IMG/VR virus record: IMGVR_UViG_2778261673_000009
Source: a virus
Taxonomy: Duplodnaviria; Heunggongvirae; Uroviricota; Caudoviricetes
Length of the DNA: 23,750 bases
Strand: one strand, 5' to 3'
The notes beneath the pieces are model-generated. The model searched no databases, was not told the origin of the DNA, and saw only the letters and a program-made list of their open reading frames with translations. Positions 1,029 through 18,013 of the stretch are shown piece by piece. Position 1 is the first letter of the stretch. The number at the start of each line of letters is the position of its first letter. A program made the translations under genes and the position numbers.

Positions 1029-3362
1029 TCAGGTTGTTGCAGGGTCGTCACATTTTGGCAGCCAGTCGCCGTAGCTTTCCTCTTTCAGCGTCAGGTTGGT
1101 CTGTATCCCCTGTTTGGTATGGCGCTTCTCGTAATTCAGTCCGTATTCCTTCAGCATCACCGGCAGCCCCAGCCCGAACATTTTCAGACTGAGTACATTC
1201 CGGTAGCCGTTTGCCTCCATGTAGGCCAGATAGGCGTGATAGAGGTATTTACGGTAATTGCGCGGGATGATACTGGCGTTCCCCATATACATGCCGCTGG
1301 TCTGCGGCAGGGTTTCCAGATAGCCGATAAAATCAAACGTCGGGTCGGCATCCCGTTTGATGTTCAGCGCCTCGTCTGAGTTCTGCTGGGACTGAAGCAG
1401 TGACCGGGCGAGCATCGGGTCGCTGAACTTCTGCATCAGGTGACGCACGATGACCGCCAGCTCGCGGGTGATTTTGTCCTTGAGCTGCGGGTCGCGCTCC
1501 TGCGGGGCTATCTGTTCCGGGAAGTGAATAATCACCCGCCGGCGTGACACGCCGCCGCTGCGGTCGGTGAAGCGCATCGGGTTATTGTTCACGGCCAGAA
1601 TCACCGCCGGGATATGCGTGGAGTACGCATCCCGGTATTTCGGGTCAACGGACACCGCATCGCCGCCGGTGATGGCCTTGAGTCCGGCTCCGTCGCCGCT
1701 CCATTTTTCCTGGTCCGGCAGGCGTATCAGTGAGAAGCCAGTTAACGCGGCACGTTCACGCGGGGATTCCAGCGTCTCAATGGTGGCCGACGTGGCGTTA
1801 TCCTCCCCGGCCAGCAGGGTGGCTATTTCGGCCATGATACTTTTGCCGCTGCCGCCGGGACCGGTCACCTCCAGAAAGAGCTGCCAGTCGTAGCGGTTTG
1901 CCAGCACCATAAACAGTGCGGCCAGAATTACGTCGCGTTTTTCCGCACGACCACCGGCAGCACGGTCAAGCCAGCGCCAGAACGCGGGGGCGTGGGTTTC
2001 CAGCGTTTCCCCTTCCACCGGCGGGGTGAAATCCACATCGCACAGGGTGCGCATCCAGTGTGACGGACTGTGCGGGTGGAACGTGCCGTTCTGCGTGTCG
2101 AGCACGCCGTTACGAAAGCCAATCAGGCGGCGGGAGGGGGCTTCCTGCTGCGGAATAATCAGCTTCAGGGTGTCCACCACGGAGGCCACCTTCCCGGAGG
2201 AGAACGGCGCACGCAGCCGCTGAAACAGCCCGGCCACATCCCGGGCAAAGTCCTGTGGTGGCAGCACCTTCCAGACACCATTTTCATAACGGGACAGAAG
2301 CTGGCCGTTGGCATCGACCGCGAGCGCCTCGCCGTAATGCTCATAGATACGCATGGCCTTTTCGCTGGTACTCATGGCGGAAAACTCTGCTTCGCTCATG
2401 GTGTCGAACGGGCTTTCAGCCGGTGGCCGGATGGCATCGTAAATGGCCTTACGGGTGGCCTCCCCGCCGTACTGCGTGAAGGCATCATTCCAGTCACCGA
2501 AGACCGGCGGCAGGGCAACAACGCCCTCACACGCATCTGCGGCTGCGGCGGCTTTTTTCTGGCCGTCACCGCTGAGGTCACGGTCTGCGGCAAGGACAAT
2601 CTGACAGGCCGGATGCTTCTGCCGGGCAAGGCTGGCCAGAGAAAGGAGGTTCACGGAAGAAAGCGCCACCATCACCGTTTCACCGGTCAGGTGATGTACG
2701 GTAAGTGCGGTTGCGTATCCCTCCGCTATCCACAGACGTTTTCCGGCCTGATTCTGTCCTTCAAGGGTGTGACAGGTGCCCCTGACCTGTCCGCCTTTCA
2801 GGGTGCGCTTACGGCCGTCAGCACTGATTAACTGAAGGTTAACCAGTTCGCCGCTGTCGTCATACAGTGGCACCACAAGGTCACCGGCGCGCCAGCTCAC
2901 GCCACCGGCTCTGTGTGTGCCGGTCAGCATCCGGCATTCCCGGCCGGGAAAGCCCTTGCGGGTCAGGTAGGCGTTACCGGTTCCGGGACGGGTTTTTGCC
3001 ATCAGGGTTTGTGCCAGTGCGGCGGCGTTCTTCCGGGCGGCTTCTGTTTCAGCAACGGCGGCGGCCGTCACTGCCGGGTCAGCCGGGGGCAGACTGCCGG
3101 TCACGGCAGCCACCTTTGTGGCCGCGTCGGACGGGGAAACACCAAACACCTTTTCAACCAGTTTCAGGCCGTCACCGGCACCACACTGATTGCAGTACCA
3201 GGTGCCGCGCCCCTCCCTGTCATCAAAACGGAAGCGGTCACTCCCGCCACAGACCGGACAGGGCTGATGACGGTTCTTCAGCACCTGAATCCCCAGCGCC
3301 GGGAGAATACGCGGCCAGTGGCCGAGCGCATGGCTGACGGTGGCGGTTACGTTCATTTTCAT
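1029..3362 (-). CDS. alpha: P4 alpha-type replication protein (primase-helicase)
   Basis: 777-aa ORF, the same length as P4 alpha. N-terminal Cys-rich zinc-binding primase segment (CPVCGG...YCNQCG), flanked by both TGTTCACC iteron clusters. Plus-strand ORFs inside it are treated as antisense artefacts. Confidence 0.9.
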   Translation of the reverse strand: MKMNVTATVSHALGHWPRILPALGIQVLKNRHQPCPVCGGSDRFRFDDREGRGTWYCNQCGAGDGLKLVEKVFGVSPSDAATKVAAVTGSLPPADPAVTAAAVAETEAARKNAAALAQTLMAKTRPGTGNAYLTRKGFPGRECRMLTGTHRAGGVSWRAGDLVVPLYDDSGELVNLQLISADGRKRTLKGGQVRGTCHTLEGQNQAGKRLWIAEGYATALTVHHLTGETVMVALSSVNLLSLASLARQKHPACQIVLAADRDLSGDGQKKAAAAADACEGVVALPPVFGDWNDAFTQYGGEATRKAIYDAIRPPAESPFDTMSEAEFSAMSTSEKAMRIYEHYGEALAVDANGQLLSRYENGVWKVLPPQDFARDVAGLFQRLRAPFSSGKVASVVDTLKLIIPQQEAPSRRLIGFRNGVLDTQNGTFHPHSPSHWMRTLCDVDFTPPVEGETLETHAPAFWRWLDRAAGGRAEKRDVILAALFMVLANRYDWQLFLEVTGPGGSGKSIMAEIATLLAGEDNATSATIETLESPRERAALTGFSLIRLPDQEKWSGDGAGLKAITGGDAVSVDPKYRDAYSTHIPAVILAVNNNPMRFTDRSGGVSRRRVIIHFPEQIAPQERDPQLKDKITRELAVIVRHLMQKFSDPMLARSLLQSQQNSDEALNIKRDADPTFDFIGYLETLPQTSGMYMGNASIIPRNYRKYLYHAYLAYMEANGYRNVLSLKMFGLGLPVMLKEYGLNYEKRHTKQGIQTNLTLKEESYGDWLPKCDDPATT

Positions 3363-3376
3363 GGTGTTGTTCTCCT

Positions 3377-3697
3377 TCAGTGCAGTACCGGCGCTTTTAT
3401 GTGACGGGCACAGAGTTCATCCATCACAACCAGCCCGAGAAAGGACAGCGACGGCGCGGCCTTCAGGGGGCCGGATTCCATTAAATCTTCCAGCAGGGCA
3501 CAGGCTATCTGACGCCCTTTTTCCTCACCGTGCTGGCGCAGATAAAAGCCTTCCAGCTCAGCGGCGATGGCCGCCTCCAGTGACTCAAGGGTGAGATGCG
3601 GGTAGCGGTGCTGACGTTCGCACACGGTCAGCCAGGCACAGGCGACAGCGCGACGGTAAAGGGCAGCGCGTAAGACGGGCGGTAAGGGTGTTTTCAT
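3377..3697 (-). CDS. P4 orf106-like protein
   Basis: 106-aa ORF immediately upstream of alpha, matching the P4 orf106 position and length. Confidence 0.6.
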
Positions 3698-3832
3698 TTG
3701 CTTTCCTCCCTGTGACAGATGACTGCATTCCGTGCCGGTTGCATTAACTGATAAGGCATATCTGCGTCTCCTGAAGACGTGCGTATCCCTGCGCGAATAC
3801 GCACATTTAATTTTTCGGGTGTCGTTTTTTAA

Positions 3833-4288
3833 TTACAGATAATTGCGGTAACTGTTATCCGGGGTGGTTTCCGGGTCAGGCTCCGTGCGGGGAATTTCCC
3901 GCCATTCCCGCGCCACCGGTGCTGCCCGGCTGACCGGAACAGTGTCCTGCGGGTAAATATCCAGATATTTTTCCCGCCATTTCTGTAATTCCGGGTCTCC
4001 GGCCATTTCTTTCAGTACCGCATGCCGGTTTACGGGGCTGCGTTTAAACAGGTCAGGACGGTCACAGGTAAATTCCCGCAGAAAACGCCCCAGCGGGATG
4101 TCTGTGGTGCGTCCGTCAGCGAGGATACGCACAAGGATACTGAATTTACGGCGGTACGGGTTCCAGACAATGTCCGGGCAGCGGTACGGCATTTCCCACG
4201 GAATACCGTCTTCCAGAATGCCGACCACGGCCACATCGGGAAAACCGGCAGAACGGTAAATCTCACCGGGCTGGGGAAAATCAAACAT
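3833..4288 (-). CDS. P4 orf151-like protein
   Basis: 151-aa ORF in the P4 orf151 position, co-directional with alpha. Confidence 0.6.
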   Translation of the reverse strand: MFDFPQPGEIYRSAGFPDVAVVGILEDGIPWEMPYRCPDIVWNPYRRKFSILVRILADGRTTDIPLGRFLREFTCDRPDLFKRSPVNRHAVLKEMAGDPELQKWREKYLDIYPQDTVPVSRAAPVAREWREIPRTEPDPETTPDNSYRNYL

Positions 4289-4568
4289 GCGTCCTGTCTC
4301 CCCGGTCTTTCTGCTGGGCGAGAAAATCGCGGCACAGGCCTTTGGCTTTCAGCTCATTCAGCACAAAATCAATATCTTCATTCAGGTAGCTGAAAATATG
4401 CGGAATGTAGAGCTGATGCAGGCCGGAGAGTTCACGGTGAATCAAATCACCCCCAACAAACCGGGATACGGCGCTGGCGCGGTTGAGCTTATGGTAAGCC
4501 TCAATGCTGAGGTGTTCACGGGCGTCATGACGCGCTGAGACGGTCTGAGGGGCTTTTTTATTACGCAC
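4281..4568 (-). CDS. Epsilon-like small protein (95 aa, GTG start) in the P4 left operon
   Basis: The 190-aa ORF in the track has no credible start. An in-frame GTG at 4568 is preceded by GGAGG with a 6-nt spacer and gives a 95-aa product overlapping the orf151 start. The name is by synteny only. Confidence 0.4.
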
Positions 4569-4758
4569 GGGACACCTCCACCACCGGCAGACGGGCAGCA
4601 AGGGAGAGCACATAGTCACGGACAAGGGAACGGCGGGCGCTGCGTTCATCACCGGCGACGGTGCGAAGCATACAGATACGGGGATGACGGTCTGCGCGAC
4701 GGACAGCCGCAAACACAAAGACAAATTCAGGGTGTGAGGGGGTAAGGGTTGTAGCCAT
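4561..4758 (-). CDS. Small left-operon protein, 65 aa (kil-like position)
   Basis: ATG at 4758 preceded by AGGAGG (about 8-nt spacer). It is the 3' part of a longer track ORF with no credible upstream start. It ends 4 nt before the epsilon-like GTG. Confidence 0.4.
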
Positions 4759-5156
4759 GATGGCAGCCTCCTGTGAATAGCAAATAACGCTATCGCCGGA
4801 GTTCTCACGCTCGATGGCGATAGCCCAGACGGGGGTGAGAATACCGGCTTCACAGGATACCGGCCAGCCCGGAGGCTGCCCCGCCTGAGCTACCATTGAC
4901 TCTGCGGCATAATGAGCGGACGCGGGCAGGATGCACGGAATGCCATCTGCACGACTGACCACACACCACACCATAATCTGGCGCTCTGTGGCATTGATTG
5001 CGACACAAAAAAAGACGCGTGGCGCGTCATATGTCGCCTGTGAATTGCTCGGGTTCTCACGCCCGGCTGCCGATTTTGCGGCAGCGGAAAAACTATATCC
5101 GCAAATGCCGGAAAAAGGCAAGCCAGAAAAAGGGAGTTTTTGCAGAGCGGGCATCA

Positions 5157-5913: not shown

Positions 5914-5985
5914 TCTGCAATGCGTCGTGTTGTTGTCCGGTGTACGTCACAATTTTCTCAACCTGAAGTGACGAGGAGCCGGAAA

Positions 5986-6720
5986 ATGTCTGACAACACC
6001 ATCCCTGAATATCTGCAACCCGCGCTGGCACAACTGGAAAAGGCCAGAGCCGCCCATCTTGAGAACGCCCGCCTGATGGATGAGACCGTCACGGCCATTG
6101 AACGGGCAGAGCAGGAAAAAAATGCGCTGGCGCAGGCCGACGGAAACGACGCTGACGACTGGCGCACGGCCTTTCGTGCAGCCGGTGGTGTCCTGAGCGA
6201 CGAGCTGAAACAGCGCCACATTGAGCGCGTGGCACGCCGGGAGCTGGTACAGGAATATGACAATCTGGCCGTGGTGCTGAATTTTGAACGTGAACGCCTG
6301 AAAGGGGCGTGTGACAGCACGGCCACCGCCTACCGGAAGGCACATCATCACCTTCTGAGTCTGTATGCAGAGCATGAGCTGGAACACGCCCTGAATGAAA
6401 CCTGTGAGGTGCTTGTCCGGGCAATGCATCTGAGTATCCTGGTACAGGAAAATCCGCTCGCCAACACCACCGGCCATCAGGGCTACGTCGCACCGGAAAA
6501 GGCTGTCATGCAGCAGGTGAAATCATCGCTGGAACAGAAAATTAAACAGATGCAAATCAGCCTCACCGGCGAGCCGGTTCTCCGGCTGACCGGACTGTCA
6601 GCGGCAACACTCCCGCACATGGATTATGAGGTGGCAGGCACACCGGCACAGCGCAAGGTGTGGCAGGACAAAATAGACCAGCAGGGTGCAGAGCTTAAGG
6701 CCAGAGGACTGCTGTCATGA
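5986..6720 (+). CDS. sid: Sid capsid size-determination (external scaffold) protein
   Basis: Taking the ATG at 5986 (GAGGAG 7 nt upstream) gives 244 aa starting MSDNTIPEYLQPALAQLEK, matching P4 Sid in length and N-terminus. Track ORFs antisense to it are rejected. Confidence 0.85.
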   Translation: MSDNTIPEYLQPALAQLEKARAAHLENARLMDETVTAIERAEQEKNALAQADGNDADDWRTAFRAAGGVLSDELKQRHIERVARRELVQEYDNLAVVLNFERERLKGACDSTATAYRKAHHHLLSLYAEHELEHALNETCEVLVRAMHLSILVQENPLANTTGHQGYVAPEKAVMQQVKSSLEQKIKQMQISLTGEPVLRLTGLSAATLPHMDYEVAGTPAQRKVWQDKIDQQGAELKARGLLS

Positions 6721-7217
6721 TTTACTGCCCGTCGTGTGGACATGTTGCTCACACCCGCCGCGCACATTTCATGGACGATGGCACCAAGATAATGATTGCA
6801 CAGTGCCGGAATATTTATTGCTCTGCGACATTTGAAGCGAGTGAAAGCTTTTTCTCTGACAGTAAAGATTCAGGAATGGAATACATTTCAGGCAAACAGA
6901 GATACCGCGATTCACTGACGTCAGCCTCCGGCAGTATGAAACGCCCGAAAAGAATGCTTGTTACCGGATATTGTTGTCGGAGATGTAAAGGCCTTGCACT
7001 GTCAAGAACATCGAGGCGTCTGTCTCAGGAAGTCACCGAGCGTTTTTATGTGTGCACGGATCCGGGCTGTGGTCTGGTGTTTAAAACGCTTCAGACCATC
7101 AACCGTTTCATTGTCCGCCCGGTCACGCCGGACGAACTGGCAGAAAGCCTGCATGAAAAACAGGAACTGCCGCCAGTACGGTTAAAAACACAATCATATT
7201 CGCTGCGTCTGGAATGA
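6717..7217 (+). CDS. delta: Delta late-gene transcriptional activator (duplicated Ogr-like zinc finger)
   Basis: 166 aa, as P4 Delta, with two Cys-rich Ogr-like halves (CPSCGH...C....C and CCRRC...C.DPGC). ATGA overlap with the sid stop. Confidence 0.85.
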   Translation: MIYCPSCGHVAHTRRAHFMDDGTKIMIAQCRNIYCSATFEASESFFSDSKDSGMEYISGKQRYRDSLTSASGSMKRPKRMLVTGYCCRRCKGLALSRTSRRLSQEVTERFYVCTDPGCGLVFKTLQTINRFIVRPVTPDELAESLHEKQELPPVRLKTQSYSLRLE

Positions 7218-7290: not shown

Positions 7291-7863
7291 ATGGAAAGCA
7301 CAGCCTTACAGCAGGCCTTTGACACCTGTCAGAATAACAAAGCAGCATGGCTGCAACGCAAAAATGAGCTGGCAGCGGCCGAACAGGAATACCTGCGGCT
7401 TCTGTCAGGAGAAGGCAGAAACGTCAGTCGCCTGGACGAATTACGCAATATTATTGAAGTCAGAAAATGGCAGGTGAATCAGGCCGCCGGTCGTTATATT
7501 CGTTCGCATGAAGCCGTTCAGCACATCAGCATCCGCGACCGGCTGAATGATTTTATGCAGCAGCACGGCACAGCACTGGCGGCGGCACTGGCACCGGGGC
7601 TGATGGGCTACAGTGAGCTGACGGCCATTGCCCGAAACTGTGCCATACAGCGTGCCACAGATGCCCTGCGTGAAGCCCTTCTGTCCTGGCTTGCGAAGGG
7701 GGAAAAAATTAATTATTCCGCACAGGATAGCGACATTTTAACGGCCATCGGATTCAGGCCTGACGCGGCTTCGGTGGATGACAGCCGTGAAAAATTCACT
7801 CCTGCGCAGAACATGATTTTTTCGCGTAAAAGTGCGCAACTGGCATCACATCAGTCTGTGTAA
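7291..7863 (+). CDS. psu: Psu polarity-suppression / capsid-decoration protein
   Basis: 190 aa, as P4 Psu, and the last gene of the sid-delta-psu operon. Confidence 0.85.
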   Translation: MESTALQQAFDTCQNNKAAWLQRKNELAAAEQEYLRLLSGEGRNVSRLDELRNIIEVRKWQVNQAAGRYIRSHEAVQHISIRDRLNDFMQQHGTALAAALAPGLMGYSELTAIARNCAIQRATDALREALLSWLAKGEKINYSAQDSDILTAIGFRPDAASVDDSREKFTPAQNMIFSRKSAQLASHQSV

Positions 7864-8027: not shown

Positions 8028-8046
8028 GGCGTGGCGGGGGGAGCAT
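8028..8046. other. cos-like cohesive-end site
   Basis: GGCGTGGCGGGGGGAGCAT matches the P2/P4 19-nt cohesive end (GGCGAGGCGGGGAAAGCAC, recalled from memory) at 15/19 positions. It lies about 165 bp past psu, as in P4, next to a GC-rich inverted repeat (CCGCCCCGC/GCGGGCGG). Confidence 0.55.
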
Positions 8047-8129
8047 TGCGCGCTAAGGCTGATATTATAATTTTCTTTAATTCTATTTGGTATTTTGGCT
8101 TTATTCGTCAGAAGGAACTTTTAGAAATA

Positions 8130-8157
8130 GACCACTACAATGGATTGTAGCGGTCTG
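8130..8157 (-). terminator. Inverted-repeat hairpin downstream of the cargo operon
   Basis: AGACCACTACAAT-GG-ATTGTAGCGGTCT (12/13-bp stem), 9 nt after the partner gene stop. The following minus-strand tract ATTTCTAAAAG is only weakly U-rich. Confidence 0.3.
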
Positions 8158-8165
8158 CATGATAT

Positions 8166-8906
8166 CTAGCGTTGCATTTCAGTTACTATGAAATTTTCTT
8201 CTGTAATAGAATTCATTATCTCAAAGTACAATTCTTCAGGTTGAATAAACGCCAACTCTTTGCAAAGGTTGACAATGGTATCACTATAAGTGATACCCAT
8301 CCGAGGATTGAAAAGCTCAAATCTCTTGATGTTTCTTTTGTTTTTTGAGTAAAAGTTTAAAGTGAAATATATTAGCACCTGTCTAAGATCGTAAACACTA
8401 AACTTCCTATCTCCTGATTTTATTTCCACAAGAACATTTGAATAATAAATATCGCCATATGAATTATTTATTACTCCGCATCCATCGAATTGTGGAGACA
8501 CTTCAATTTGGTTTTCCATTCCATATCGAGACAAAATGTTTCTTGCTATTTCCCTTATGGCATTGTACTCAACCATGCTTAAGGGTAGCTTGAAGTTAGA
8601 ACCGTAAGCGAACCGCTGTAGATATTCTTTTGTTTTTTCAAAAACAACCTGAAAATCAGCATTATGGAAGATATCATGTGCTGAAAGAATATTTCTGTCT
8701 AACGAATCATTCTGTATTGCCCTATATAAATTAAATGCGCACTCATTGACAAAGACGTTATTTGACCTATTAGCGCAGTCATCTAGAGGAGGATAAACGT
8801 CCTCGATGAGACTGCCGTTAATGATGCGTATGAAATTATTAGCATTTGGAAGCAATTGATTCCAAAATGAAGTGAATTTTCGAGAAAACGTTAATTCAGA
8901 TATCAT
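8166..8906 (-). CDS. Hypothetical 246-aa protein, partner of the reverse-transcriptase gene; possible PD-(D/E)xK-type nuclease
   Basis: AT-rich ORF whose ATG overlaps the RT stop (ATGA). It contains GDIYYSNVLVEIKSG, that is D-x9-E-x-K. The nuclease reading is motif-level inference only. Confidence 0.6.
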   Translation of the reverse strand: MISELTFSRKFTSFWNQLLPNANNFIRIINGSLIEDVYPPLDDCANRSNNVFVNECAFNLYRAIQNDSLDRNILSAHDIFHNADFQVVFEKTKEYLQRFAYGSNFKLPLSMVEYNAIREIARNILSRYGMENQIEVSPQFDGCGVINNSYGDIYYSNVLVEIKSGDRKFSVYDLRQVLIYFTLNFYSKNKRNIKRFELFNPRMGITYSDTIVNLCKELAFIQPEELYFEIMNSITEENFIVTEMQR

Positions 8907-10531
8907 AGCGCATCCTCAAGATTTCTTGCGGTATGCCTTTTACTTGCCCAATCCCTGTAAATCACCTCTACAAAGTTGAATGTTTTCTTATTATGCTCTC
9001 TCCAGTGCCGTCCTTCATCACCTAAGATGTAACTGGAAACGATCAATAGTCTTCTCTGCAACGGATGCATTGCAGAGAAATTTTTTTTGATATCAGAAAG
9101 CCATGCGTAAGAATTAATTTTTGCCATTGACTGTGTAACTATGTTCTTGACTAAGATGCTTTCTGGATTGTTATTGTATATTTCACTAAGGATTAGGGTG
9201 GATTTTTCTGAATTTTCTTTTGAGAGCATTCGGGCTACATAGGCTAAGTTGAGCTCAGTACTCAAAATATATGAATCTTGTTTAATTAGTGCAGTTATTT
9301 TATCAAGAATAATATCTTTGGTTTCTGTGCTTAATTTTTGCCAGTTGGAGTTAGCTACTTGAATTATAGTTGTAAATATTGGATATAACTCATGCAAGTT
9401 ATTAAACATTACTTTGAAAGCACTACTTATTATTTCATCTGATGTTGCTGAGAATGCCTTTATCAAATGCTTGCTAAAAGATTGGTTAATTTTTGATTTT
9501 TGTAACTCACTACTCAGCATAGCTAACAAGTCAAAATCTTTTAAAGATTCCTTTATCTCTTCATATTCCTCTATCGCATTTGCTGAGTAAGGATCGAATC
9601 TTATAGGAAGACTCATAAATTTAGCCTTCATAGGAGATTCTTCATCTTCATCATTACCATGCAACTTAGCTTTAGTTACTGAAAGGAACTCTTCTTTAGT
9701 AACAATATTGGTTTTTTGTTTCTGTAAAGTTAGCCCTTCATTTTCCATCAGTTTTTTACTAAGCAAAGTTAAAATCTTATGAGCATCCTCTCTAGAGTTA
9801 CAAAAAATAACAAAGTCGTCGACATAACGCTTATAGTTGATTCTATTCATAGACAATAATTTATCAATAGAATCTAGAGCTAGTTCTGCTAATATTCTAG
9901 AGGCAGGACATCCAACTGGTACTCCATATGATTTTGTTTCACTAAATGTCTGTAGTAATTTCTTGATTTTCCCAGAGTAATCTTTATTGGGGTCTACTCT
10001 ATCTAACGCATTTTCTAAACGGTGGTGATAAATACGCGGATAGAAATCTGCTATATCGCATGTAAGTACATACTTTATTTCATCGTTAGAACATTCAGAG
10101 ATACTGTCTTCTTGATATTTTCTCCAAGAGATCTCTTTATCAAAAAGAGAACCATCAGCAAGGTTTGGTTTAAAGCGATATGAATAAACCTGCGTTTTAG
10201 TAGATCTATTCCTTTCAATATCATCAGCGATTTTTAAAACTAACCCAAGAAAAAAAGCATTCCAGAATGGATCAATTTGGGTCGCCCACCTGTAACCATA
10301 ATAACCAATACTTGAAAAGCTATTAATTATGTTTGGTGGAATCTCGATCCTTTTATTTTCAAAGTCATTAAATGTTTGCATTAATGCAGTTTTTACTTTC
10401 TCCTTATCATCTTCAAATAACCGACTTTCAAATGGGTAAGGGAAAATATCTGTATCGCCGTGCTTTATAATATTTTCCAATGCAAGCTCAAAGCAATTTT
10501 CTAGTTTACTACTATCAAACTCGTTACTCAT
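8903..10531 (-). CDS. Reverse-transcriptase-domain protein with a long alpha-helical C-terminal extension (Abi/DRT-like architecture)
   Basis: 542 aa with RT motifs read directly: CDIADFYPRIYHHRL (motif A-like), YGVPVGCPASRILAELAL (motif B-like) and YKRYVDDFVIF (YxDD catalytic motif, encoded near 9811-9822). About 250 C-terminal residues lie beyond the RT core. Strongly AT-rich relative to its neighbours. Confidence 0.85.
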   Translation of the reverse strand: MSNEFDSSKLENCFELALENIIKHGDTDIFPYPFESRLFEDDKEKVKTALMQTFNDFENKRIEIPPNIINSFSSIGYYGYRWATQIDPFWNAFFLGLVLKIADDIERNRSTKTQVYSYRFKPNLADGSLFDKEISWRKYQEDSISECSNDEIKYVLTCDIADFYPRIYHHRLENALDRVDPNKDYSGKIKKLLQTFSETKSYGVPVGCPASRILAELALDSIDKLLSMNRINYKRYVDDFVIFCNSREDAHKILTLLSKKLMENEGLTLQKQKTNIVTKEEFLSVTKAKLHGNDEDEESPMKAKFMSLPIRFDPYSANAIEEYEEIKESLKDFDLLAMLSSELQKSKINQSFSKHLIKAFSATSDEIISSAFKVMFNNLHELYPIFTTIIQVANSNWQKLSTETKDIILDKITALIKQDSYILSTELNLAYVARMLSKENSEKSTLILSEIYNNNPESILVKNIVTQSMAKINSYAWLSDIKKNFSAMHPLQRRLLIVSSYILGDEGRHWREHNKKTFNFVEVIYRDWASKRHTARNLEDAL

Positions 10532-11708
10532 TCACATTCTCCTTAATAAAAATATAATCTGAATACCACTGCATCATATCACGGCGTTTATCAATATATT
10601 GAGCATGATTATACGTACCTCTAATATTATTCTTATCTATATGAGCAAGCTGTATTTCTATCCAAGCCGAATCATATCCTTTTTCGTGGAGGATAGTAGA
10701 TAAGGAATGTCGAAATCCATGACCAGTAAGTTTTCCACCATAACCAATACGCTTGATAACTTGGTTAATACTCGCCTCACTCATAGGCTTGTTCGGATCG
10801 TTCCGCCCCGGAAAAACATAACTATACTTCCCTGTCATCATCTTGAGTTCATTTAGCAAATCTAACGCTTGAGTCGACAAAGGCACAAGGTGTGATCTGC
10901 GCATTTTCATCCTTTCAGCAGGAATTTCCCAAATAGCGTTATCTAAATCAAATTCTGACCATAATGCCGCACGTAATTCGATGGTTCTAACACCTGTAAT
11001 CATGAGCAATTTCGTGGCAATCAGGACAAGCCGACTTCCGGTATATCCGTTTAAGGCGCGAAGAAAATCAGGTATCTCATTAGCCTTTAAGAACGGGAAA
11101 TGATTTGATTGGTGTACATTGAGGGCGCTTGAAAGATCCGCAGCAGGGTTAAACTCAGCCCTTCCAGTAGCAATGGCATAGCGGAAAACTTCTGAGCATC
11201 GCTGCCGAACTTTGCGCATTTTTTCTAATGCACCGCGCTTTTCGATTTTACGCAGCACATTAAGCAGTTCTAGCGGTTTAATCTCTCCCACTGGCCTTGT
11301 TCCCACATAAGGAAAAATGTCGTTCTTAAACGCTTCCATGATGTCTGATGCATATCCCGCCGACCATTTGGTAGACTTCTGTTGATGCCACTCTCTGGCT
11401 ATCTTTTCGAAGGCGTTCTCTGACTCTGTTTGCAGAGCCAGCTTTTGCTCTTTTCGAACCTCACTAGGGTTCTTTCCTTCTGCCACAAGTTTTCGAGCTT
11501 CATCACGACGGGAACGAGCATCAGCAAGAGTGATCGTTGGGTAAACACCAAGCGAGATCATTTTGGGTTTACCGGCATAGCGATAACGAAATCGCCAGCT
11601 TTTACTTCCATTTGGCTCTACAAGTAAAGACAACCCTTGCCCATCCCCAAGTGTATAGGCTTTAGCTTCAGGTTTAGCACGGCGAATCTGCATATCATTT
11701 AGGGGCAT
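10524..11708 (-). CDS. int: P4-family tyrosine integrase
   Basis: 394 aa with a typical P4-type integrase N-terminus (AKPEAKAYTLGDGQGLSLLVEPNGSKSWRFRYRY) and a C-terminal catalytic region (HGFRHSLSTIL...). It is adjacent to the putative att core. The true start may be the second Met, 15 nt downstream. Confidence 0.9.
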   Translation of the reverse strand: MPLNDMQIRRAKPEAKAYTLGDGQGLSLLVEPNGSKSWRFRYRYAGKPKMISLGVYPTITLADARSRRDEARKLVAEGKNPSEVRKEQKLALQTESENAFEKIAREWHQQKSTKWSAGYASDIMEAFKNDIFPYVGTRPVGEIKPLELLNVLRKIEKRGALEKMRKVRQRCSEVFRYAIATGRAEFNPAADLSSALNVHQSNHFPFLKANEIPDFLRALNGYTGSRLVLIATKLLMITGVRTIELRAALWSEFDLDNAIWEIPAERMKMRRSHLVPLSTQALDLLNELKMMTGKYSYVFPGRNDPNKPMSEASINQVIKRIGYGGKLTGHGFRHSLSTILHEKGYDSAWIEIQLAHIDKNNIRGTYNHAQYIDKRRDMMQWYSDYIFIKENVNE

Positions 11709-11872
11709 GTGTATAGAATTCCAAAATCGAACAGGAACATATACATAATCCTATACACATTTAGTACTGGATTCTACTGGAAAGTTATGGACTAATACGA
11801 ACAGTAAAAACAAAAAATCTTTTATAAAACAGTGCGGTTATGGATAAATACGGATGTTTGAAGAAGTGGAGA

Positions 11873-11890
11873 TGGTGCCGATAATAGGAG
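11873..11890. repeat. Putative attachment-site core, junction copy next to int (ATGGTGCCGATAATAGGA)
   Basis: Direct repeat of 546-563, about 165 bp upstream of the int start. The nearby sequence carries TATACACA-type motifs (11712-11760), also seen inside the other end (620-641), as expected for integrase arm sites. Confidence 0.45.
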
Positions 11891-12033
11891 TAAAACACTC
11901 GATTAATCTCGTGTTAATGCCATCACCTACGACTATTACTAATTGATTGAATCTTATAGAAAAATAATCATTTTCTATGCGTCACAATCAATTTTCACAT
12001 TACAAACGCTCCGACACTTTAGCCGGAGATTTT

Positions 12034-13311
12034 ATGAGATACAAGCCTAACCAATACTTAATCTGTGATTCTTACGGTAACTACTATTTAAGGATCACGC
12101 TGCCTGTGTATATGCAGCCCTTTTTTGAAGGAAAAAGGACGTTTGTCAGAAGTCTACACACAAGTAATCTTCGTGTTGCACGTAGAAAGCGTGATCAGAT
12201 TGCAGATGAATACCATTGCTTACGGGAGAGTGTTGCCCCTGTAAACAGCACAATAGAAAACACGCTGGAACTGTTACGCAGTAAGGCTAAATACGCCAAA
12301 ACAGCTACCAGAGTGCAAGATACAGCGTCTTCGTGTCCGTCATTGCTTAAAATTCTTGAAATCTACCTGACAATTAACAGCACGAAGAAGAAGCCAGCCA
12401 CTTTAGCTAAGGCAAGAAAAGCGGTAGAGATGTTTCTCTCCTACCGTAAAAAGCCTGATATTGCATTGCAAGATGTAAGCCGCACCACTGTTACAGGCTG
12501 GATTGAACACATGCAAAAAACTCTTTCACAACAATCAATTGCAAATTATATCAGCCCAATGGCCCAGCTATGGGAGTTAGCTTCATCACGTTACCACGAT
12601 GCGCCAGAAAGGGCGCTCTCCCCCTGGCGAGGGCATAGGCTTGATGTGGCACAAAGTAGAGAGAGCTACGAGGCATTTTCTAACAAAGAGCTATTGCAGG
12701 TGTTGCAAGTATTTTCCGGTAATTCAGCAGAAAACAAAGAAATGACGGCTTTGTGTCTTATCGGTTTATATACAGGTATGCGGATCAATGAGATAGCAAG
12801 TCTCACAATAGACGATGTGAAAGAGATCGAAGGTGTGCTGTGTTTTGAAATCACACAGGGAAAGACGAAAGCAGCGGCACGTGTTGTGCCTGTACATAGC
12901 CTTATCACTCCGTTGGTGTTGTCGCTGCGTGAAAAGCCTCACAATGGCTTTTTGTTCTATCACGCCAGCATTACAGAGCGTGCTGATGGTAAACGTTCCA
13001 CGTGGCATACGCAGAGATTTACAAGAGCTAAACGAAAGGCTTTAGGGGAAAAGGGAACAGAAAGGAAGGTGTTTCATTCTCTGAGACACGGAGTAGCACA
13101 GCTTCTTGATCGAAATCAAATTCCAGAAGACAGGATCGCCCTTCTCCTGGGCCATACACGCGGCAATACAGAAACATTCCGCACATATAGCAAAAATGCA
13201 GCTTCTCCAGTAGAGCTTAAAAAATATATTGAGCTTTTACGCTACCCTGAAATAGAGAAAGGCTTATCAATCAATAAAAAATCAAATTTAAGGCGTAAAA
13301 CAACGCCATAG
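12034..13311 (+). CDS. Tyrosine recombinase / phage-type integrase of a second element
   Basis: Catalytic motifs visible: TGMRINEI, HSLRHGVAQLL and LLGHTRGNTETFRTYS. The track's longest ORF begins at 11977, but the ATG at 12034 has a GGAG Shine-Dalgarno 6 nt upstream and is preferred. Confidence 0.8.
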   Translation: MRYKPNQYLICDSYGNYYLRITLPVYMQPFFEGKRTFVRSLHTSNLRVARRKRDQIADEYHCLRESVAPVNSTIENTLELLRSKAKYAKTATRVQDTASSCPSLLKILEIYLTINSTKKKPATLAKARKAVEMFLSYRKKPDIALQDVSRTTVTGWIEHMQKTLSQQSIANYISPMAQLWELASSRYHDAPERALSPWRGHRLDVAQSRESYEAFSNKELLQVLQVFSGNSAENKEMTALCLIGLYTGMRINEIASLTIDDVKEIEGVLCFEITQGKTKAAARVVPVHSLITPLVLSLREKPHNGFLFYHASITERADGKRSTWHTQRFTRAKRKALGEKGTERKVFHSLRHGVAQLLDRNQIPEDRIALLLGHTRGNTETFRTYSKNAASPVELKKYIELLRYPEIEKGLSINKKSNLRRKTTP

Positions 13312-13392
13312 ACGTAATAAGGAGGCTTCAACATAGATTGGTAGCCTCTTTTATAATTACATCGTTACAGAGCGTTTCATAGGCGTTTAAGG

Positions 13393-14070
13393 CTATTGTT
13401 TAAATACTGGTGTTACAACGTCTTGCCCTGGGCTTTTTTGATTTTTCTGTTCTGTTGTATTTACCTGCATTTTAACCTGTCCCCCTACAGATTTATTTGG
13501 TGCTGTTTTTACAGCAATAGCATTAGTGGTGGCCTTAGAGACAAGACGAATTTGCTCAAAATCAAGAGTAAACAATATGCTTTCGCTTGCTTCTTCTTCG
13601 TAAGACATGCCAACTAACACAACGTTGTCATAATTTTTTAACTCAGTGACAAGTAGGAAAGGTTGGCGACTGTCCATCAACTGATTTAGGTATTCAAGCA
13701 TAAGCATACGTCGATTGCCGTTAATTCCAGCATTCTTAATCATATCAGGATTGAGCTTCAATACGGTTTCAGAGATACGCCCTTGTAATGTGAACTTGTT
13801 ATTCCGTATTTGAACATGATCACTAACTTCTGATCCTGATTCGACAGCATAGCTTGTAACGTCTGCATTTCTGCTAACTCTCGTCGATTCCACGCTATCA
13901 AATGATAATGCCTGGTAGTCATTGTAAGCAGCATTTGCACCACTGCCGAGATTAGAGGTAATGATCGCAAAGCCGTTACCCCCTTTAGTTGTTCTACCGT
14001 TGCTATCGTTGCTTGTGCTGTTGATTTTCGCCTCAGTCGGGCGACCAATGGTTAACGGACCCATTGCCAT
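13393..14070 (-). CDS. Hypothetical 225-aa protein, last gene of the structural-type operon
   Basis: ORF with AAGGA about 9 nt upstream of the ATG, co-directional with the upstream genes. No recognisable motif. Confidence 0.55.
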   Translation of the reverse strand: MAMGPLTIGRPTEAKINSTSNDSNGRTTKGGNGFAIITSNLGSGANAAYNDYQALSFDSVESTRVSRNADVTSYAVESGSEVSDHVQIRNNKFTLQGRISETVLKLNPDMIKNAGINGNRRMLMLEYLNQLMDSRQPFLLVTELKNYDNVVLVGMSYEEEASESILFTLDFEQIRLVSKATTNAIAVKTAPNKSVGGQVKMQVNTTEQKNQKSPGQDVVTPVFKQ

Positions 14071-14117
14071 AATTTGTAATCCTTATTTAAGGGGGCTAAA
14101 CAGCCCCACAGTGATGA

Positions 14118-15959
14118 TTAATAGGTTGACCCGCCTGACATAACACCCAGCGTTAATAGCTTGCTAAACTCAGCGGAGGATGCCTTTGATTTGAAGTCGA
14201 TAAATTCGCTCAATCGTCCGGTGTCTGATTCGATAGTTAGCGGCACTTCTGCATTTACTTGTAATTCTGGATTGAAGTTAATAACAGGTGCAAAGGTGTA
14301 AGAAGGAGCCTTGAAAGCTTGTTGTGCTGCACTCTGTTTCAGATTTGCAATGTTTTGTCCTTCGAGACTGTATTGATTTACAGCCTGCGCCCCACCTACC
14401 GTTTCTTCTGGCATAAACCAGCTTTTAATAGTGTTAACCAGGGAATTGCTGTTATCTGGCTTAGTTGTTCCGGTGCCAGCGCCTTTATATTGATCAGGAG
14501 TGAGATTAGAAAGATTCTGCTTCATTCCTTCGTTAGATAGTGGCGGTGCATCACCTAAATTCTTCTGAATAGCTGCCGTCTTCTCGTCGTTTTTCATCAG
14601 CCAGTTGATTGTTTTCATTACGGCGTTAACCAATCCGCCGATAGCCTCGCCTAATTTGGTAAACATTGGCAGCATTGCAACCATGCTCTTTTTAAACTCT
14701 TCAATCACTTTCGGATCAAGAGATTTCATAAAGCCATCAACAAAGGCGATCCCTTGTGAGTCAGAAAGCCCACTAAGTGCATTATTCAGTTCACGGAATT
14801 TAATAACGCTTTCCTGTTGTGCCTGTGTTACCCAGCGCCCTGATTCTCGTTGTTCTCGTGCTGATTGTTCCACTTCTTTAGCGGAGCGTGTCCAGTATTT
14901 AGAGGTGAGCATCAAATCATCAGCCAGATCTTCCAGACGACTACCGATTTGTGCATCTGAATAGCCTTTAGCTACCATTCCCTGAACTGCTTTACTAACC
15001 AGACCAGCCGGATTATCAGCAAAGTCTTTTAGATCCTTTTTAGTTAGGAATCCTTCATTCATTAAAGTATTGATGCCGCTATCGCCGCCCTTCCATTCGC
15101 CTTTCCCTGTTTTCTTATCGACTACATATTCAGCCTCATCATAGCTTTTGGTTGCACGCTCACGCACATCTTTCATCTGATCGAGATACTTACGTTTACC
15201 TTGATCCCCCATCATTGAATCAACGCCGTTTTTATACGCCCATTGCTCAATATTGTTCATCTGGTTAACGTCTACACCGCCCAGCTTCGCACGGCTATAC
15301 AATTCTCCCAGCGTTTCAGCACTGGCAAAGCTGTTAGTAACAAATTCAGAGGCTTTGCTCATAGCCATATACGTAGCGCCAGCGCCTAAGCCACCCAGCA
15401 TAACAGCCGCAGCACCGCCGCCAATACTCCCGCTACCCTTAACAGGTGCATAGGCTTTAGCGTGAGCGTTACGATTGCCATTAATCTTACGTTGTTGCTG
15501 TTGTAGGCGTTTCATTTGGCTATTCATACGTGCCAGACTAATAGCGCCTCTTTCATATTGGAGGGCAATTTCTCTAGCCTGTGCAATAGCTTTATATTGT
15601 TCCGCTACAGAAAGACGGTGCATTGCACTAATGCTTGATCCAACGTCTAAAAGCTTTAAGTCTGCCTTCTCTTTGCGTGCTGCCAGGGCTTTTTGTTCTC
15701 TTGCAACTACACGTTGAGCGGCTAATTGTGCTTTAGCATTAGCTTTATCAGCCTGTGCTTGCTTTTTAGCAATATCGTCTACGTCTTTTTTTGCTTTAGC
15801 GGTTGATTGTTTATGTGTCTTAACACGCAATTCTATATCTTTCACAGCCGCCATTTGTTTACGAAGTTTTTCTACTTCTGCTTTTGCTTTCTCTAATGAT
15901 GGTCGATCAACCTGGAAGGTGACAACGTTTGATAAGCGGCTGACGGTAAGGTCTAACAT
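14118..15959 (-). CDS. 613-aa protein with N-terminal coiled-coil region and Gly-rich hydrophobic segment (tape-measure-, ejection- or scaffold-like)
   Basis: The N-terminal 150 aa are rich in K/A/E/Q heptad-like sequence, followed by GSGSIGGGAAAVMLGGLGAGATYMAM and then a long polar region. The functional class is inferred from composition only. Confidence 0.65.
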   Translation of the reverse strand: MLDLTVSRLSNVVTFQVDRPSLEKAKAEVEKLRKQMAAVKDIELRVKTHKQSTAKAKKDVDDIAKKQAQADKANAKAQLAAQRVVAREQKALAARKEKADLKLLDVGSSISAMHRLSVAEQYKAIAQAREIALQYERGAISLARMNSQMKRLQQQQRKINGNRNAHAKAYAPVKGSGSIGGGAAAVMLGGLGAGATYMAMSKASEFVTNSFASAETLGELYSRAKLGGVDVNQMNNIEQWAYKNGVDSMMGDQGKRKYLDQMKDVRERATKSYDEAEYVVDKKTGKGEWKGGDSGINTLMNEGFLTKKDLKDFADNPAGLVSKAVQGMVAKGYSDAQIGSRLEDLADDLMLTSKYWTRSAKEVEQSAREQRESGRWVTQAQQESVIKFRELNNALSGLSDSQGIAFVDGFMKSLDPKVIEEFKKSMVAMLPMFTKLGEAIGGLVNAVMKTINWLMKNDEKTAAIQKNLGDAPPLSNEGMKQNLSNLTPDQYKGAGTGTTKPDNSNSLVNTIKSWFMPEETVGGAQAVNQYSLEGQNIANLKQSAAQQAFKAPSYTFAPVINFNPELQVNAEVPLTIESDTGRLSEFIDFKSKASSAEFSKLLTLGVMSGGSTY

Positions 15960-15993
15960 ACTGATTGTTTCCCTGTATTATGATTGTTGTTTG

Positions 15994-16191
15994 TTATTGT
16001 TTTTTAGAACAATAATATTGGATTGCTTCGAAAGTGCTGCACCCGGTCTGAAACACACGCTGCCGCACATTATTTGCATCAATTGAAAGCATTCTGCATA
16101 AGGCACTGACATTGATTATTGAGTCATCGCTAATAGCTGCCAGTTCTTTTACAGATTTAAGAATTAATGCCTGTGAATTTTCTGTGTTCAT
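15994..16191 (-). CDS. Small hypothetical protein (65 aa)
   Basis: ORF with a weak ribosome-binding site between the capsid-like gene and the 613-aa gene. Confidence 0.3.
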   Translation of the reverse strand: MNTENSQALILKSVKELAAISDDSIINVSALCRMLSIDANNVRQRVFQTGCSTFEAIQYYCSKKQ

Positions 16192-16355
16192 TGGTTTTCT
16201 CTCACATATATATTTTTATTTGGATTTGTAGACAGTAGAAAAACAAAAAGGGCAAAGAGATTCGTTACTGTATTTGCGCCTACAGGTTAGTTAATCTCCT
16301 TACCCTTATTGCCCCCCGATTATTTCCAGACGTAGGGGAACGTCTTTAACACTTT

Positions 16356-17384
16356 TTACGCTACTGTGATCTGCACAGAGAAGCCAACACCGTGGTTAAC
16401 CACAAGCGAGCTATTCTCGGTCACTACGTGCACTGCGTCGCCGCGATTCGATTCGAAAGCATAGCTGTAATACTCTTTAGCGCCTTGAGACAGCAGATCG
16501 AAGGAACTGGAAGGCGCGCCATAGATAGCTTGGTAAACACCTCCACCCTTAGCGAATTTAGGCACGGCTACAGCGTCAGCGGTCATATGTGCCAGCAGCA
16601 GCGGATCAGTCACTTTGATCAGATCAATGTTAGTTCCTGGAATGGTGAAAGTAGTTACGCCAGGCAGCAGAGAACGCACATTAAACACCACGTTTGCATC
16701 GTCTACAGGGCTTGCATATTGGAACGCATTGACCATGCCAACGCTGTAACGAATAGCGTTGAATGCCGCAGGTTTACAGAACACAACAACACGCTCAATG
16801 GTTGCAGCCTGGCTTTGTGCCTTAGCAATCATATCCGTATGCATCTGATCAAATTGCTTGAATACGGTCATTGTGTTGGTGCTGGATGCGTCAACGGTTG
16901 CAGTCATTGGAGACACACCGAACAGAGTGCTGTAATCGATCAGAACATCGTCAGTTTTCGGCGTATGTGTCTTGCCAGAGAACAGAGAAGCCGCGAGGAT
17001 GCTTTCTTTAGTGCGCTGGAATGCAACATTGTGTTTAGCGATATATTCCGCATACAGATCCGGCAGTGTTTCTTCAATAGAGCTTCCGGCTTTGCGTTTG
17101 CCTTGCACGTCCTGCGGTTTGATCAGGTCTTCACGCAGGAAGTAAGGGATTTCAATCAGCCATTCTTCCCCGTTCTCACGCTTAGTAACGTTATGCTCAG
17201 AGCTAAAACGGCTTGTAGGATGGTTGAACAGAGATTCATTGCTCTCGATAAGCTGGGAAACAGCCACTTTGTGACTTTCTACAGGCACAGGATCAGTAAA
17301 ATCCAGAGTAGACAGTAGGTAATTGCGTGAGTCGTTTAATTCGAACAGTGGAGCAAGATCAACCACTTCATTTCCGATAATCAT
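16356..17384 (-). CDS. Putative major capsid protein, lambda gpE-like
   Basis: 342 aa, essentially the length of lambda E-family capsid proteins. C-terminus ...GFSVQITVA resembles the E-family C-terminal motif as recalled. Preceded by a 124-aa gene, like the lambda D-E pair. GAAGGA lies 10 nt upstream of the ATG. Confidence 0.5.
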   Translation of the reverse strand: MIIGNEVVDLAPLFELNDSRNYLLSTLDFTDPVPVESHKVAVSQLIESNESLFNHPTSRFSSEHNVTKRENGEEWLIEIPYFLREDLIKPQDVQGKRKAGSSIEETLPDLYAEYIAKHNVAFQRTKESILAASLFSGKTHTPKTDDVLIDYSTLFGVSPMTATVDASSTNTMTVFKQFDQMHTDMIAKAQSQAATIERVVVFCKPAAFNAIRYSVGMVNAFQYASPVDDANVVFNVRSLLPGVTTFTIPGTNIDLIKVTDPLLLAHMTADAVAVPKFAKGGGVYQAIYGAPSSSFDLLSQGAKEYYSYAFESNRGDAVHVVTENSSLVVNHGVGFSVQITVA

Positions 17385-17400
17385 TATTATTTATTCCTTC

Positions 17401-17984: not shown

Positions 17985-18013
17985 AAAATAACGATTCCGT
18001 TATGTTCCGAGTA

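Follow-up and report, generated by a model that had tools for sequence, protein, structure and literature searches.

The satellite element and its cargo

The window, i.e., the whole analysed stretch of 23,750 nt, contains a P4-like satellite of E. coli, which is about 11.35 kb in size and delimited by two att copies lying 11.35 kb apart. Its ends and the far side of its cargo slot are marked by the following features:

539-555, no strand assigned: left att copy, GGTGCGATAATAGGAAT, which repeats the 3' end of tRNA-Thr imperfectly
7291-7863, plus strand: psu (Pfam Psu, E=4.8e-88), conserved gene which flanks the hotspot on its far side
8028-8046, no strand assigned: cos-like sequence, GGCGTGGCGGGGGGAGCAT, aligning with the P4 end
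11874-11891, no strand assigned: right att copy (3' end of tRNA-Thr), situated upstream of int, with the presumed Pint region between it and 11709

The P4 core genes alpha, sid-like, delta (Ogr_Delta), psu and int were identified with Pfam, whereby alpha, the primase-helicase, is a 777-aa protein with the domains Zn_Ribbon_Prim, Toprim, D5_N and Pox_D5, and the gene order agrees with that of P4. These core genes, the cos site and a size near 11.6 kb characterize a P4-like satellite, and a P4-type RNA immunity region (CI/C4 RNA) is present as well, the Rfam matches to C4 (74.9 bits), isrK (69.7) and c4-a1b1 (49.5) all lying above their gathering scores. Aligned with the window, the linear P4 genome reaches position 8027 with its right end (11624), and homology to its backbone sets in again between 8051 and 8081, where the cargo slot has its edge on the cos side. 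As expected for a P4 defence hotspot, the cargo between psu/cos and int varies among related elements, those with related int and psu carrying many different cargos, among them AAA-ATPase+HNH, SIR2 and ABC-three-component. Within the window this slot is occupied by two genes:

8903-10531, minus strand: DRT8 (UG7) reverse transcriptase (RT), 542 aa (PADLOC Drt8, E=4.9e-166, residues 11-532; Pfam RVT_1, E=1.2e-18)
8166-8906, minus strand: DRT8 partner of the PD-(D/E)XK type, 246 aa (PADLOC RTasPDDEXK, E=5.5e-69)

The RT gene has a G+C content of 33% and encodes YVDD at 9826-9815 (residue 236); its next-best PADLOC profile, RT_UG21, scored 1.2e-37. The Drt8 profile spans residues 11-532, hence the C-terminal region of the RT, where Class 1 UG/Abi RTs possess an alpha-repeat domain, is at least homologous to Drt8. 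The partner possesses E-I-K at 8426-8418 (residues 161-163). Judged by these matches, the cargo is DRT8, a known anti-phage system, as a UG7-clade RT with an intact catalytic YxDD is found adjacent to a PD-(D/E)XK-like partner (cluster 17, Mestre 2022). UG7 was reported to occur in P4 hotspots, was named DRT8 and, in the case of a UG7 system, was reported to protect against T5, a function requiring the active sites of both the RT and the nuclease (Mestre 2022, PMC9226505). In Table S1 of the P4-hotspot survey, exactly the pair identified here (WP_000064054 and WP_000622599, "RVT_1 + hypothetical") is given as system 2 with a count of 294 (Rousset 2022, PMC9122126).

The junction between integrase and reverse transcriptase

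At its other edge, the slot borders on the integrase gene, and the junctions within the resulting row of genes are defined by the following features:

10524-11708, minus strand: int, P4-type tyrosine integrase, 394 aa (Pfam Arm-DNA-bind_3, Phage_int_M, Phage_integrase)
10524-10531, minus strand: int-RT overlap, ATGAGTAA, 8 nt common to the RT start and the int stop
10524-10544, minus strand: cassette leader (AAGGAG, 7-nt spacer, RT codons 1-3), which in the int frame reads as the six final codons K-E-N-V-N-E and the stop
8903-8906, minus strand: ATGA overlap of the RT stop (TGA, 8905-8903) and the partner start (ATG, 8906-8904)

Direct reading of the minus strand in the int frame gives ...ATT AAG GAG AAT GTG AAT GAG TAA, with the stop codon TAA at 10526-10524. 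The RT opens with ATG AGT AAC, its ATG lying at 10531-10529 and following the ribosome-binding site AAGGAG (10544-10539) at a distance of 7 nt. The earlier note had described an overlap at either end of the RT gene, and both are borne out by this reading and by the NCBI PGAP annotation of an identical copy (L001; RT 10104-11732, int 11725-12909), whose gene limits agree; as it had further stated, int, RT and partner are co-directional without intergenic DNA.

Sequencing errors or a re-assignment of the RT start had been named as findings that would overturn this description. That a wrong RT start, a frameshift or a sequencing error merely simulates the overlap can, for practical purposes, be dismissed, and no support for this explanation was found. 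A sequencing error is excluded because 104-105 complete E. coli genomes carry the int-RT stretch at an identity of at least 99%, with an identical junction, and the PGAP calls are identical too. Homologues of the RT (n=14, 49-89% identity) align from residue 1 onwards with the consensus MxNxxxxxxLE, and RT residue 11 aligns to position 4 of the PADLOC Drt8 profile. Sequence reading revealed no in-frame start for the RT further upstream, and after the start codon an in-frame Met recurs only at residue 51, which lies within the conserved N-terminal region. Going by these alignments, the RT start is secure.

The overlap itself is statistically unremarkable. In bacterial operons, short overlaps of -1, -4 and -8 belong to the usual spacings, and the 4-nt ATGA overlap of RT and partner was seen in all DRT8 loci examined. 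The integrase is conserved up to QWYSD (10571-10557), which is followed by a cargo-specific tail, and comparison of hotspots revealed that these tails vary with each cargo. In the window, the int stop TAA is formed by RT codons 2-3 (AGT AAC). Recurrence of the junction among relatives, put forward in the earlier note as a check, was found in part: the same overlap of -8 is present in E. coli, Citrobacter and Klebsiella, but the int stop is positioned at +2 relative to the RT ATG in Chimaeribacter and at -20 in a metagenome. Because the int frame enters the cassette leader and ends at a TAA made by the RT gene, and because the stop shifts in this manner among relatives, the overlap ATGAGTAA is to be regarded as a by-product of abutment and not as a designed coupling device.

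This bears on the claim that the genes are translationally coupled, i.e., that ribosomes which have terminated int at its TAA start anew at the RT ATG, 5 nt before it, and thereby tie RT output to Int translation. The 8-nt overlap does place stop and start within re-initiation distance, and it is retained in E. coli, Citrobacter and Klebsiella, but the strong AAGGAG upstream of the RT, whose spacing is close to the optimum, permits independent initiation, the int stop is not kept in a fixed position, a Klebsiella copy has int broken into two ORFs with DRT8 intact, and DRT8 loci without int share the same ribosome-binding site. Occlusion of that site by mRNA structure is not supported, as the local fold, in which weak A-U/G-U helices take up part of SD and AUG, is not significant (z = -0.87). 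Re-initiation is hence judged improbable, and on the sequence alone translational coupling, as it had been stated, appears both unnecessary and unsupported.

Close packing in P4-like hotspots

The tight joining of cargo and integrase had been called unusual in the earlier note, a view which is not supported, as close packing is the norm in P4-like hotspots. A survey of 80 loci, obtained by scanning viral contigs with Psu (genome contigs gave 6 loci), yielded 30 distinct co-directional arrangements with a median int-cargo gap of 11.5 nt, whereby gaps above about 90 nt may conceal short ORFs. Overlap or direct abutment (gap of 0 nt or less) was found in 8 of the 30, a gap of at most 15 nt in 17 and one of at most 50 nt in 24. 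Convergent cargo is close-packed too (median 54 nt), and hotspot examples annotated by PGAP possess gaps of 11, 2 and 3 nt. An apparent fusion of integrase and cargo protein in locus L032, with 621 extra residues, was rejected, as a real TAA stop of int is situated 9 nt before the cargo ATG. Tight abutment is thus the rule in P4-like hotspots, and the survey can be condensed into a simple statement, namely that the edge of the slot lies within the last codons of int. RTs of 81-82% identity follow integrases that are only 36-40% identical to the window int, again directly at the int end. Exchange of cargo looks like homologous recombination within int combined with events near cos.

Limits of the DRT8 cassette

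In Morganella, Brenneria, Providencia and Chimaeribacter, the DRT8 loci are homologous to the window from AAGGAGA onwards, i.e., from the ribosome-binding site of the RT, and this homology ends at 8116-8173. Just as had been claimed, the int-RT junction, being devoid of intergenic DNA, offers no space for a cargo promoter, and the late onset of DRT8 homology reinforces this. Outside P4 hotspots, 124-711 nt of non-coding DNA precede the RT gene; in Morganella, which lacks int, this region holds a good sigma-70-like site, TTGATA-17-TATAGT (score 13.7) 150 nt upstream of it. In decayed loci of Providencia and Brenneria, a 3' remnant of int of 200-330 nt has been left before an intact DRT8, from which it was considered that the int 3' end could hold a weak promoter. 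The opposite end of the cassette is marked by a further feature:

8129-8156, minus strand: hairpin of 12 bp followed by AUUUCU, just 3' of the partner stop (z = -3.18; a fold as good was reached by 1 of 200 shuffles)

This hairpin is probably the intrinsic terminator of the unit, as suggested by its predicted fold, and the homology to the Morganella DRT8 locus passes through it to 8116.

Transcription of the cargo

The three genes are spaced as in a single operon, being co-directional with overlaps of 8 and 4 nt, and no terminator-like site was found on the minus strand from 11708 to 8166, i.e., from the int start to the partner stop. Promoters were sought with a weight matrix and dinucleotide-shuffle controls, an insensitive approach which missed Pint itself: on the sense strand from 11976 to 10400 the best sigma-70-like site scored 9.0 vs a null maximum of 11.1 +/- 1.5, and a strict sigma-70 scan of the sense strand of int and its upstream region likewise gave nothing above chance. 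From the spacing and the absence of detectable signals, co-transcription of int, RT and partner is the best inference, and the earlier proposal that the cargo is expressed from within or upstream of int is plausible.

A start within int was considered separately. According to this explanation, the cargo has a promoter of its own in the final 300 nt or so of int, independent of Pint, so that int and DRT8 would be fused and yet be separate transcription units. One candidate was located:

10608-10636, minus strand: weak candidate promoter ATAAGA-17-TATAAT inside int (score 8.1; predicted start near 10601)

The -10 hexamer, a perfect one situated 77 nt before the RT ATG, is found again at this position both in int of an unrelated family (L099) and in the decayed remnant of Providencia, and the degraded loci described above have kept int 3' remnants ahead of an intact DRT8. 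Further, co-directional systems were cloned by Rousset 2022 with about 30-100 nt of the int 3' end as "native promoter", and some of these were active; however, the insert in that work replaces GFP downstream of pTet, hence read-through from the vector is possible. The score of 8.1 remains below the chance maximum of 11.1 +/- 1.5, the two hexamers coincide with the conserved int codons D-K-N and Y-N, and Morganella, where int is wholly lost, has another promoter-like site which is much better. TATAAT is moreover equally frequent in hotspots with convergent (8/17) and co-directional (14/27) cargo, for which reason the Y-N TATAAT was rejected as a selected cargo promoter. Taken together, an internal promoter is considered rather unlikely. 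A plus-strand site antisense to int (TTCACA-16-TATAAT, 10531-10558) was attributed to chance, as its score of 12.9 differs from the chance maximum by no more than about 1.2 sd, and in Citrobacter the -10 reads TATAAC.

On balance, we therefore hold it to be the more probable reading, with some reservation, that the window displays the int-proximal edge of a P4 defence hotspot, where a promoter-less DRT8 abuts int and probably forms a single unit with it. The slot between int and cos/psu takes up a promoter-less cassette consisting of ribosome-binding site, RT, partner and probable terminator hairpin; as the cassette closely abuts int, the int frame overruns into its leader and halts at the first in-frame stop. 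Transcription of the three genes as one unit is assumed to begin at Pint, which is situated upstream of int and repressed by Int/Vis, possibly with additional read-through from thrW where the tRNA gene is adjacent, and to end at the hairpin (8156-8129). Translation of the RT would rely on the strong AAGGAG of the cassette, and the RT-partner ATGA represents the DRT8 family's own conserved junction. Such a compact layout fits the packaging limit of a satellite of about 11.35 kb. Repression of the P4 Pint by Int and Vis is described in PMC7286903, citing Piazzolla 2006. Counting against this best explanation, an Int-repressed Pint would result in very low cargo expression, a level which may be insufficient for defence.

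A more far-reaching model, which is tentative and by our own estimate somewhat doubtful, would treat the hotspots in general as promoter-less slots: co-directional cargo, whatever its kind, would be trimmed to its ribosome-binding site and driven by Pint under the Int/Vis circuit, and Int would offer its C-terminal tail, being non-essential, as a tolerant landing pad supplying or borrowing a stop codon. If true, a Pint-driven slot would yield a burst of defence upon entry into a naive cell, remain at a low steady level during lysogeny and be silenced upon induction.

Comparison with known systems

Element, slot and cargo have all been published before, and for discovery the junction carries little weight, gene overlaps of such size being routine. 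Its practical use lies in the cloning and modelling of P4-hotspot defence systems: where cargo is co-directional, the few dozen bases upstream of it are integrase coding sequence and the "native promoter" is probably elsewhere, hence constructs with only a short upstream stretch may under-express or rely on vector read-through.

The P4 satellite defence hotspot (Rousset 2022, PMC9122126; 2026 follow-up, PMC13586616) is the same element type with the same cos-side slot and cargo. Cargo in either orientation is described there, and our survey agrees. The accessible texts of both contain neither the int-proximal junction nor the co-directional spacing of about 0-50 nt, nor a cargo-supplied int tail or stop codon, nor the mode of cargo transcription. 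With DRT8/UG7 (PMC9226505) the window proteins match over their full length, including the YVDD and E-x-K motifs, and no protein difference was found; DRT8 elsewhere, however, possesses its own upstream DNA, whereas the window copy is trimmed to the ribosome-binding site. In P4 itself, the first hotspot gene beside int (cII) is likewise co-directional and is followed by an annotated terminator, but the int-cII gap amounts to 66 nt and the cargo is gop-beta-cII instead of DRT8.

Integron cassettes are promoter-less, occupy a fixed slot by a tyrosine recombinase gene and are transcribed from a platform promoter, Pc. The likeness to the window is one of analogy only, the shared logic being that of promoter-less cassettes with a ribosome-binding site of their own. 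Integrons combine an IntI-type integrase with a divergent Pc/attI, whereas the window integrase is P4-type (Arm-DNA-bind_3) and not IntI, its cargo is downstream and co-directional instead of divergent and the slot holds one cassette. A comparable arrangement was reported for small serine recombinases of Bacillota (PMC13552941), which differ in recombinase class, hosts and element type, but in which the recombinase gene is directly followed by a co-directional defence gene and both are transcribed as a bicistronic mRNA.

Cargo of the P4-like satellite

Judged from its sequence, the window contains a P4-like satellite of E. coli, at ~11.35 kb as given by the spacing of its att copies (the P4 genome comprises 11,624 bp). 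In strains with a simple arrangement the satellite is located at tRNA-Thr (thrW), adjoining proA, and 165 nt separate int, the P4-type integrase gene, from the co-directional tRNA upstream; the window differs in that a second integrase-bearing element lies between satellite and thrW.

Features of the satellite
539-555 and 11874-11891, imperfect att copies
1029-3362, minus strand, alpha primase-helicase
4813-5098, minus strand, C4, isrK and c4 a1b1 target (Rfam), together the P4-type RNA immunity region
5920-6720, plus strand, sid-like ORF
6717-7217, plus strand, delta
7291-7863, plus strand, psu
8028-8046, cos-like site
10524-11708, minus strand, P4-type integrase

Features of the second element (11892-23750, in tandem at thrW)
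11977-13311, plus strand, integrase
13393-14070, minus strand, baseplate/tail-fibre-like gene
14118-15959, minus strand, tape-measure-like gene
16356-17384, minus strand, major-head-like gene
20320-20913, minus strand, replication-initiator-like gene

With these small phage-like genes on the minus strand, the second element resembles a further satellite-type element, small and capsid-encoding; in strain EC12 it comprises ~12.8 kb and is flanked by the P4-like att copy and tRNA-Thr. The EC12 locus (L106, 12797-13417) has the same flank as the window, and its P4-like element is deleted for the immunity region, sid and part of delta, a deletion that spares int-DRT8-psu, which remains intact.

The cargo consists of two genes between int and cos, the first encoding a reverse transcriptase (RT) with a YVDD motif that matches PADLOC Drt8 (E=4.9e-166), the second a partner with an E-I-K motif that matches RTasPDDEXK (E=5.5e-69). 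DRT8 is UG7, which was reported to protect against T5 with both the RT and the PD-(D/E)XK active sites being required, and whose occurrence in P4 hotspots was noted in the same work (Mestre et al. 2022, PMC9226505). The psu-int hotspot was defined by Rousset et al. 2022 (PMC9122126), whose Table S1 lists WP_000064054 and WP_000622599, exactly the window's two proteins, as system 2 (count 294). Element, slot and cargo are hence already described. With a G+C content of 33-34% (8166-10531), as compared to 43% for int, 53% for psu and 61% for alpha, the cassette has the composition of foreign DNA relative to the satellite backbone.

The gene junctions

Read directly from the window, minus strand 10544-10521 is AAGGAGAATGTGAATGAGTAACGA, where the int frame runs AAG GAG AAT GTG AAT GAG TAA with its stop at 10526-10524 and the RT frame opens with ATG AGT AAC at 10531-10529, so that both ORFs have 8 nt in common; the RT ATG is preceded by AAGGAG, 7 nt upstream. 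At its 3' end (...GCG CTA TGA) the RT overlaps the partner start (ATG ATA) by ATGA at 8906-8903. PGAP annotation of an identical copy gives the same gene limits, the int-RT stretch recurs at at least 99% identity in 104-105 complete E. coli genomes, which speaks against a sequencing error, and the RT start is fixed by homologue alignments beginning at residue 1 and by the Drt8 profile. Both overlaps described in the earlier note are hence confirmed, as is the lack of room for a cargo promoter between int and RT, since int, RT and partner are joined with zero intergenic DNA.

Origin of the overlap

DRT8 loci were gathered from other organisms and the regions upstream of the RT aligned. Sequence shared by the window with the Morganella, Brenneria, Providencia and Chimaeribacter loci begins at AAGGAGA, and upstream of it the alignment revealed no similarity between the window and these four. 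As Met-Ser-Asn is moreover the N-terminus of the RT itself, the int stop TAA is provided by RT codons 2-3, and it is the ribosome-binding site and spacer of the cassette that encode the final six int residues (K-E-N-V-N-E). The 8-nt overlap recurs in E. coli, Citrobacter and Klebsiella, but not everywhere: in Chimaeribacter the int frame closes at a TAG within AAGGAGATAG, 2 nt ahead of the ATG, and in a metagenomic satellite lacking this TAG int extends 20 nt into the RT. The latter two integrases are just 36-40% identical to that of the window, as opposed to 81-82% for their RTs, and therefore the same cassette was placed, with the same cut point, behind unrelated integrases. At the far edge, homology with Morganella extends through the hairpin following the partner gene to 8116, and P4 backbone homology picks up again at 8051-8081. 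Ribosome-binding site, RT, partner and terminator thus make up the whole of the compact cargo, which lacks a 5' region of its own. DRT8 pairs outside P4 hotspots possess such a region, which in Morganella includes a good promoter-like TTGATA-17-TATAGT 150 nt upstream of the RT.

Non-coding DNA upstream of DRT8 pairs outside P4 hotspots
Salmonella, after an int: 166 nt
Providencia vermicola, inside a lambdoid prophage: 124 nt
Enterovibrio: 445 nt
Morganella, after smpB (ssrA and its terminator included): ~711 nt

What is new here is modest: the slot edge falls within the final int codons, the cargo supplies the int stop, and DRT8 in the P4-like slot is cut back to its ribosome-binding site.

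Intact DRT8 is immediately preceded by a decayed remnant of the int 3' end, broken by in-frame stops, in Providencia rettgeri (L097, 4662-4995) and Brenneria goodwinii (L095, 4778-4977). Neither island is P4-like any more, and both copies are therefore derived from a locus where DRT8 adjoined int.

Expression of the cargo

Minus-strand terminator-like sites were not found from the int start to the partner stop, and downstream of the partner gene lies a 12-bp hairpin with a U-rich tail whose fold is significant (z = -3.18). Sense-strand sigma-70-like sites between 11976 and 10400 did not exceed chance (best 9.0 versus a null maximum of 11.1 +/- 1.5). The three genes would hence form a single transcription unit starting upstream of int. 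According to PMC7286903 (citing Piazzolla 2006), both Int and Vis repress P4 Pint, the int promoter; the cargo would then be expressed at a low, autoregulated level, and thrW read-through is conceivable in strains with the adjacent tRNA. Co-directional hotspot cargo may be driven by the Int/Vis-regulated int promoter.

As main rival, a weak promoter within the int 3' end was considered, with ATAAGA-17-TATAAT at 10636-10608, 77 nt before the RT ATG, as candidate. The same motif also occurs at this site in a different int family and in the decayed Providencia remnant, and 200-330 nt of dead int are kept ahead of live DRT8 in Providencia and Brenneria; however, both hexamers are simply conserved codons (D-K-N and Y-N), their score lies below chance, and TATAAT is no commoner with co-directional (14/27) than with convergent cargo (8/17). 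Rousset et al. (PMC9122126) describe co-directional systems cloned with just ~30-100 nt of the int 3' end as 'native promoter', some of which were active, and PARIS-1 activity seen only under Ptet, results that weigh neither for nor against an internal promoter.

On the plus strand, TTCACA-16-TATAAT (10531-10558, 11/12 matches) resembles a promoter that crosses the boundary of cassette and int and is directed antisense into int. Its score is 12.9 versus a chance maximum of 11.1 +/- 1.5, and it is probably due to chance, as the -10 of the Citrobacter copy is TATAAC.

The overlap had further been taken to make the unit translationally coupled. Several findings argue against coupling as a requirement: RNA folding at the junction is weak (z = -0.87), the position of the int stop shifts between relatives, and a Klebsiella island has int in two ORFs, yet DRT8 intact. 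RT translation is most likely initiated independently at its own AAGGAG. The island concerned (L107/L108, Klebsiella quasipneumoniae) consists at thrW of att, int (~1836-3008, called as ORFs of 113 and 232 aa), DRT8 (RT at 3001-4629) and a remnant of the cos region, having lost psu together with the remaining satellite; it keeps the 8-nt overlap as ATGAATAA and looks like a domesticated remnant retaining defence genes alone.

Junctions in the hotspot and cargo exchange

The tight fusion of cargo to integrase, deemed unusual in the earlier note, turned out to be common when 73 psu-to-int loci were collapsed to distinct arrangements.

Gap between int and the first hotspot gene
Co-directional with int, 30 arrangements: <=0 nt in 8, <=15 nt in 17, <=50 nt in 24; median 11.5 nt
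Convergent with int, 26 arrangements: <=0 nt in 2, <=15 nt in 3, <=50 nt in 11; median 54 nt

In several co-directional junctions the ribosome-binding site straddles the int stop (e.g., ATGTAAGGAGAAAATATG); gaps in PGAP-annotated examples are 11, 2 and 3 nt, and in P4 itself cII starts 66 nt past int. The overlap is real, and the earlier note reads it in part correctly, yet such junctions are ordinary and this system is already catalogued.

The integrase family is conserved as far as ...MMQWYS(D/N)xI(F/L), beyond which divergent tails of ~5-25 residues go with the cargo. Among thrW-family integrases, that of an element carrying AAA-ATPase+HNH cargo is 100% identical to that of the window from ~11800 to 10784, past which identity drops to 73-87% and then to 60% in the final 60 nt, while the Citrobacter DRT8 element shows the opposite (mostly 82-92%, 97% in 10723-10604). 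From these opposite patterns it follows that, among close relatives, DRT8 and ~250 nt of the int 3' end were co-transferred by homologous recombination inside int, which fits the 'second homologous recombination event' proposed by Rousset et al. (PMC9122126). Along window 10604-10784, compared with both elements (L002 and L009), int is a mosaic whose final 120-200 nt share 97% identity with the Citrobacter DRT8 satellite, a pattern that indicates a recombination breakpoint inside int.

Comparison with known systems

The slot may be likened to that of an integron, as a cassette that lacks a promoter but brings a ribosome-binding site would be served by a platform promoter next to a tyrosine recombinase. 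In contrast to integrons, the integrase is P4-type and the cargo lies downstream and co-directional, and because of this the element is not an integron. A recombinase-defence bicistron is known for small serine recombinases in Bacillota (PMC13552941). The window's element belongs both to the P4-like hotspot family and to DRT8, and all sequence-testable defining features of the two were found in it.
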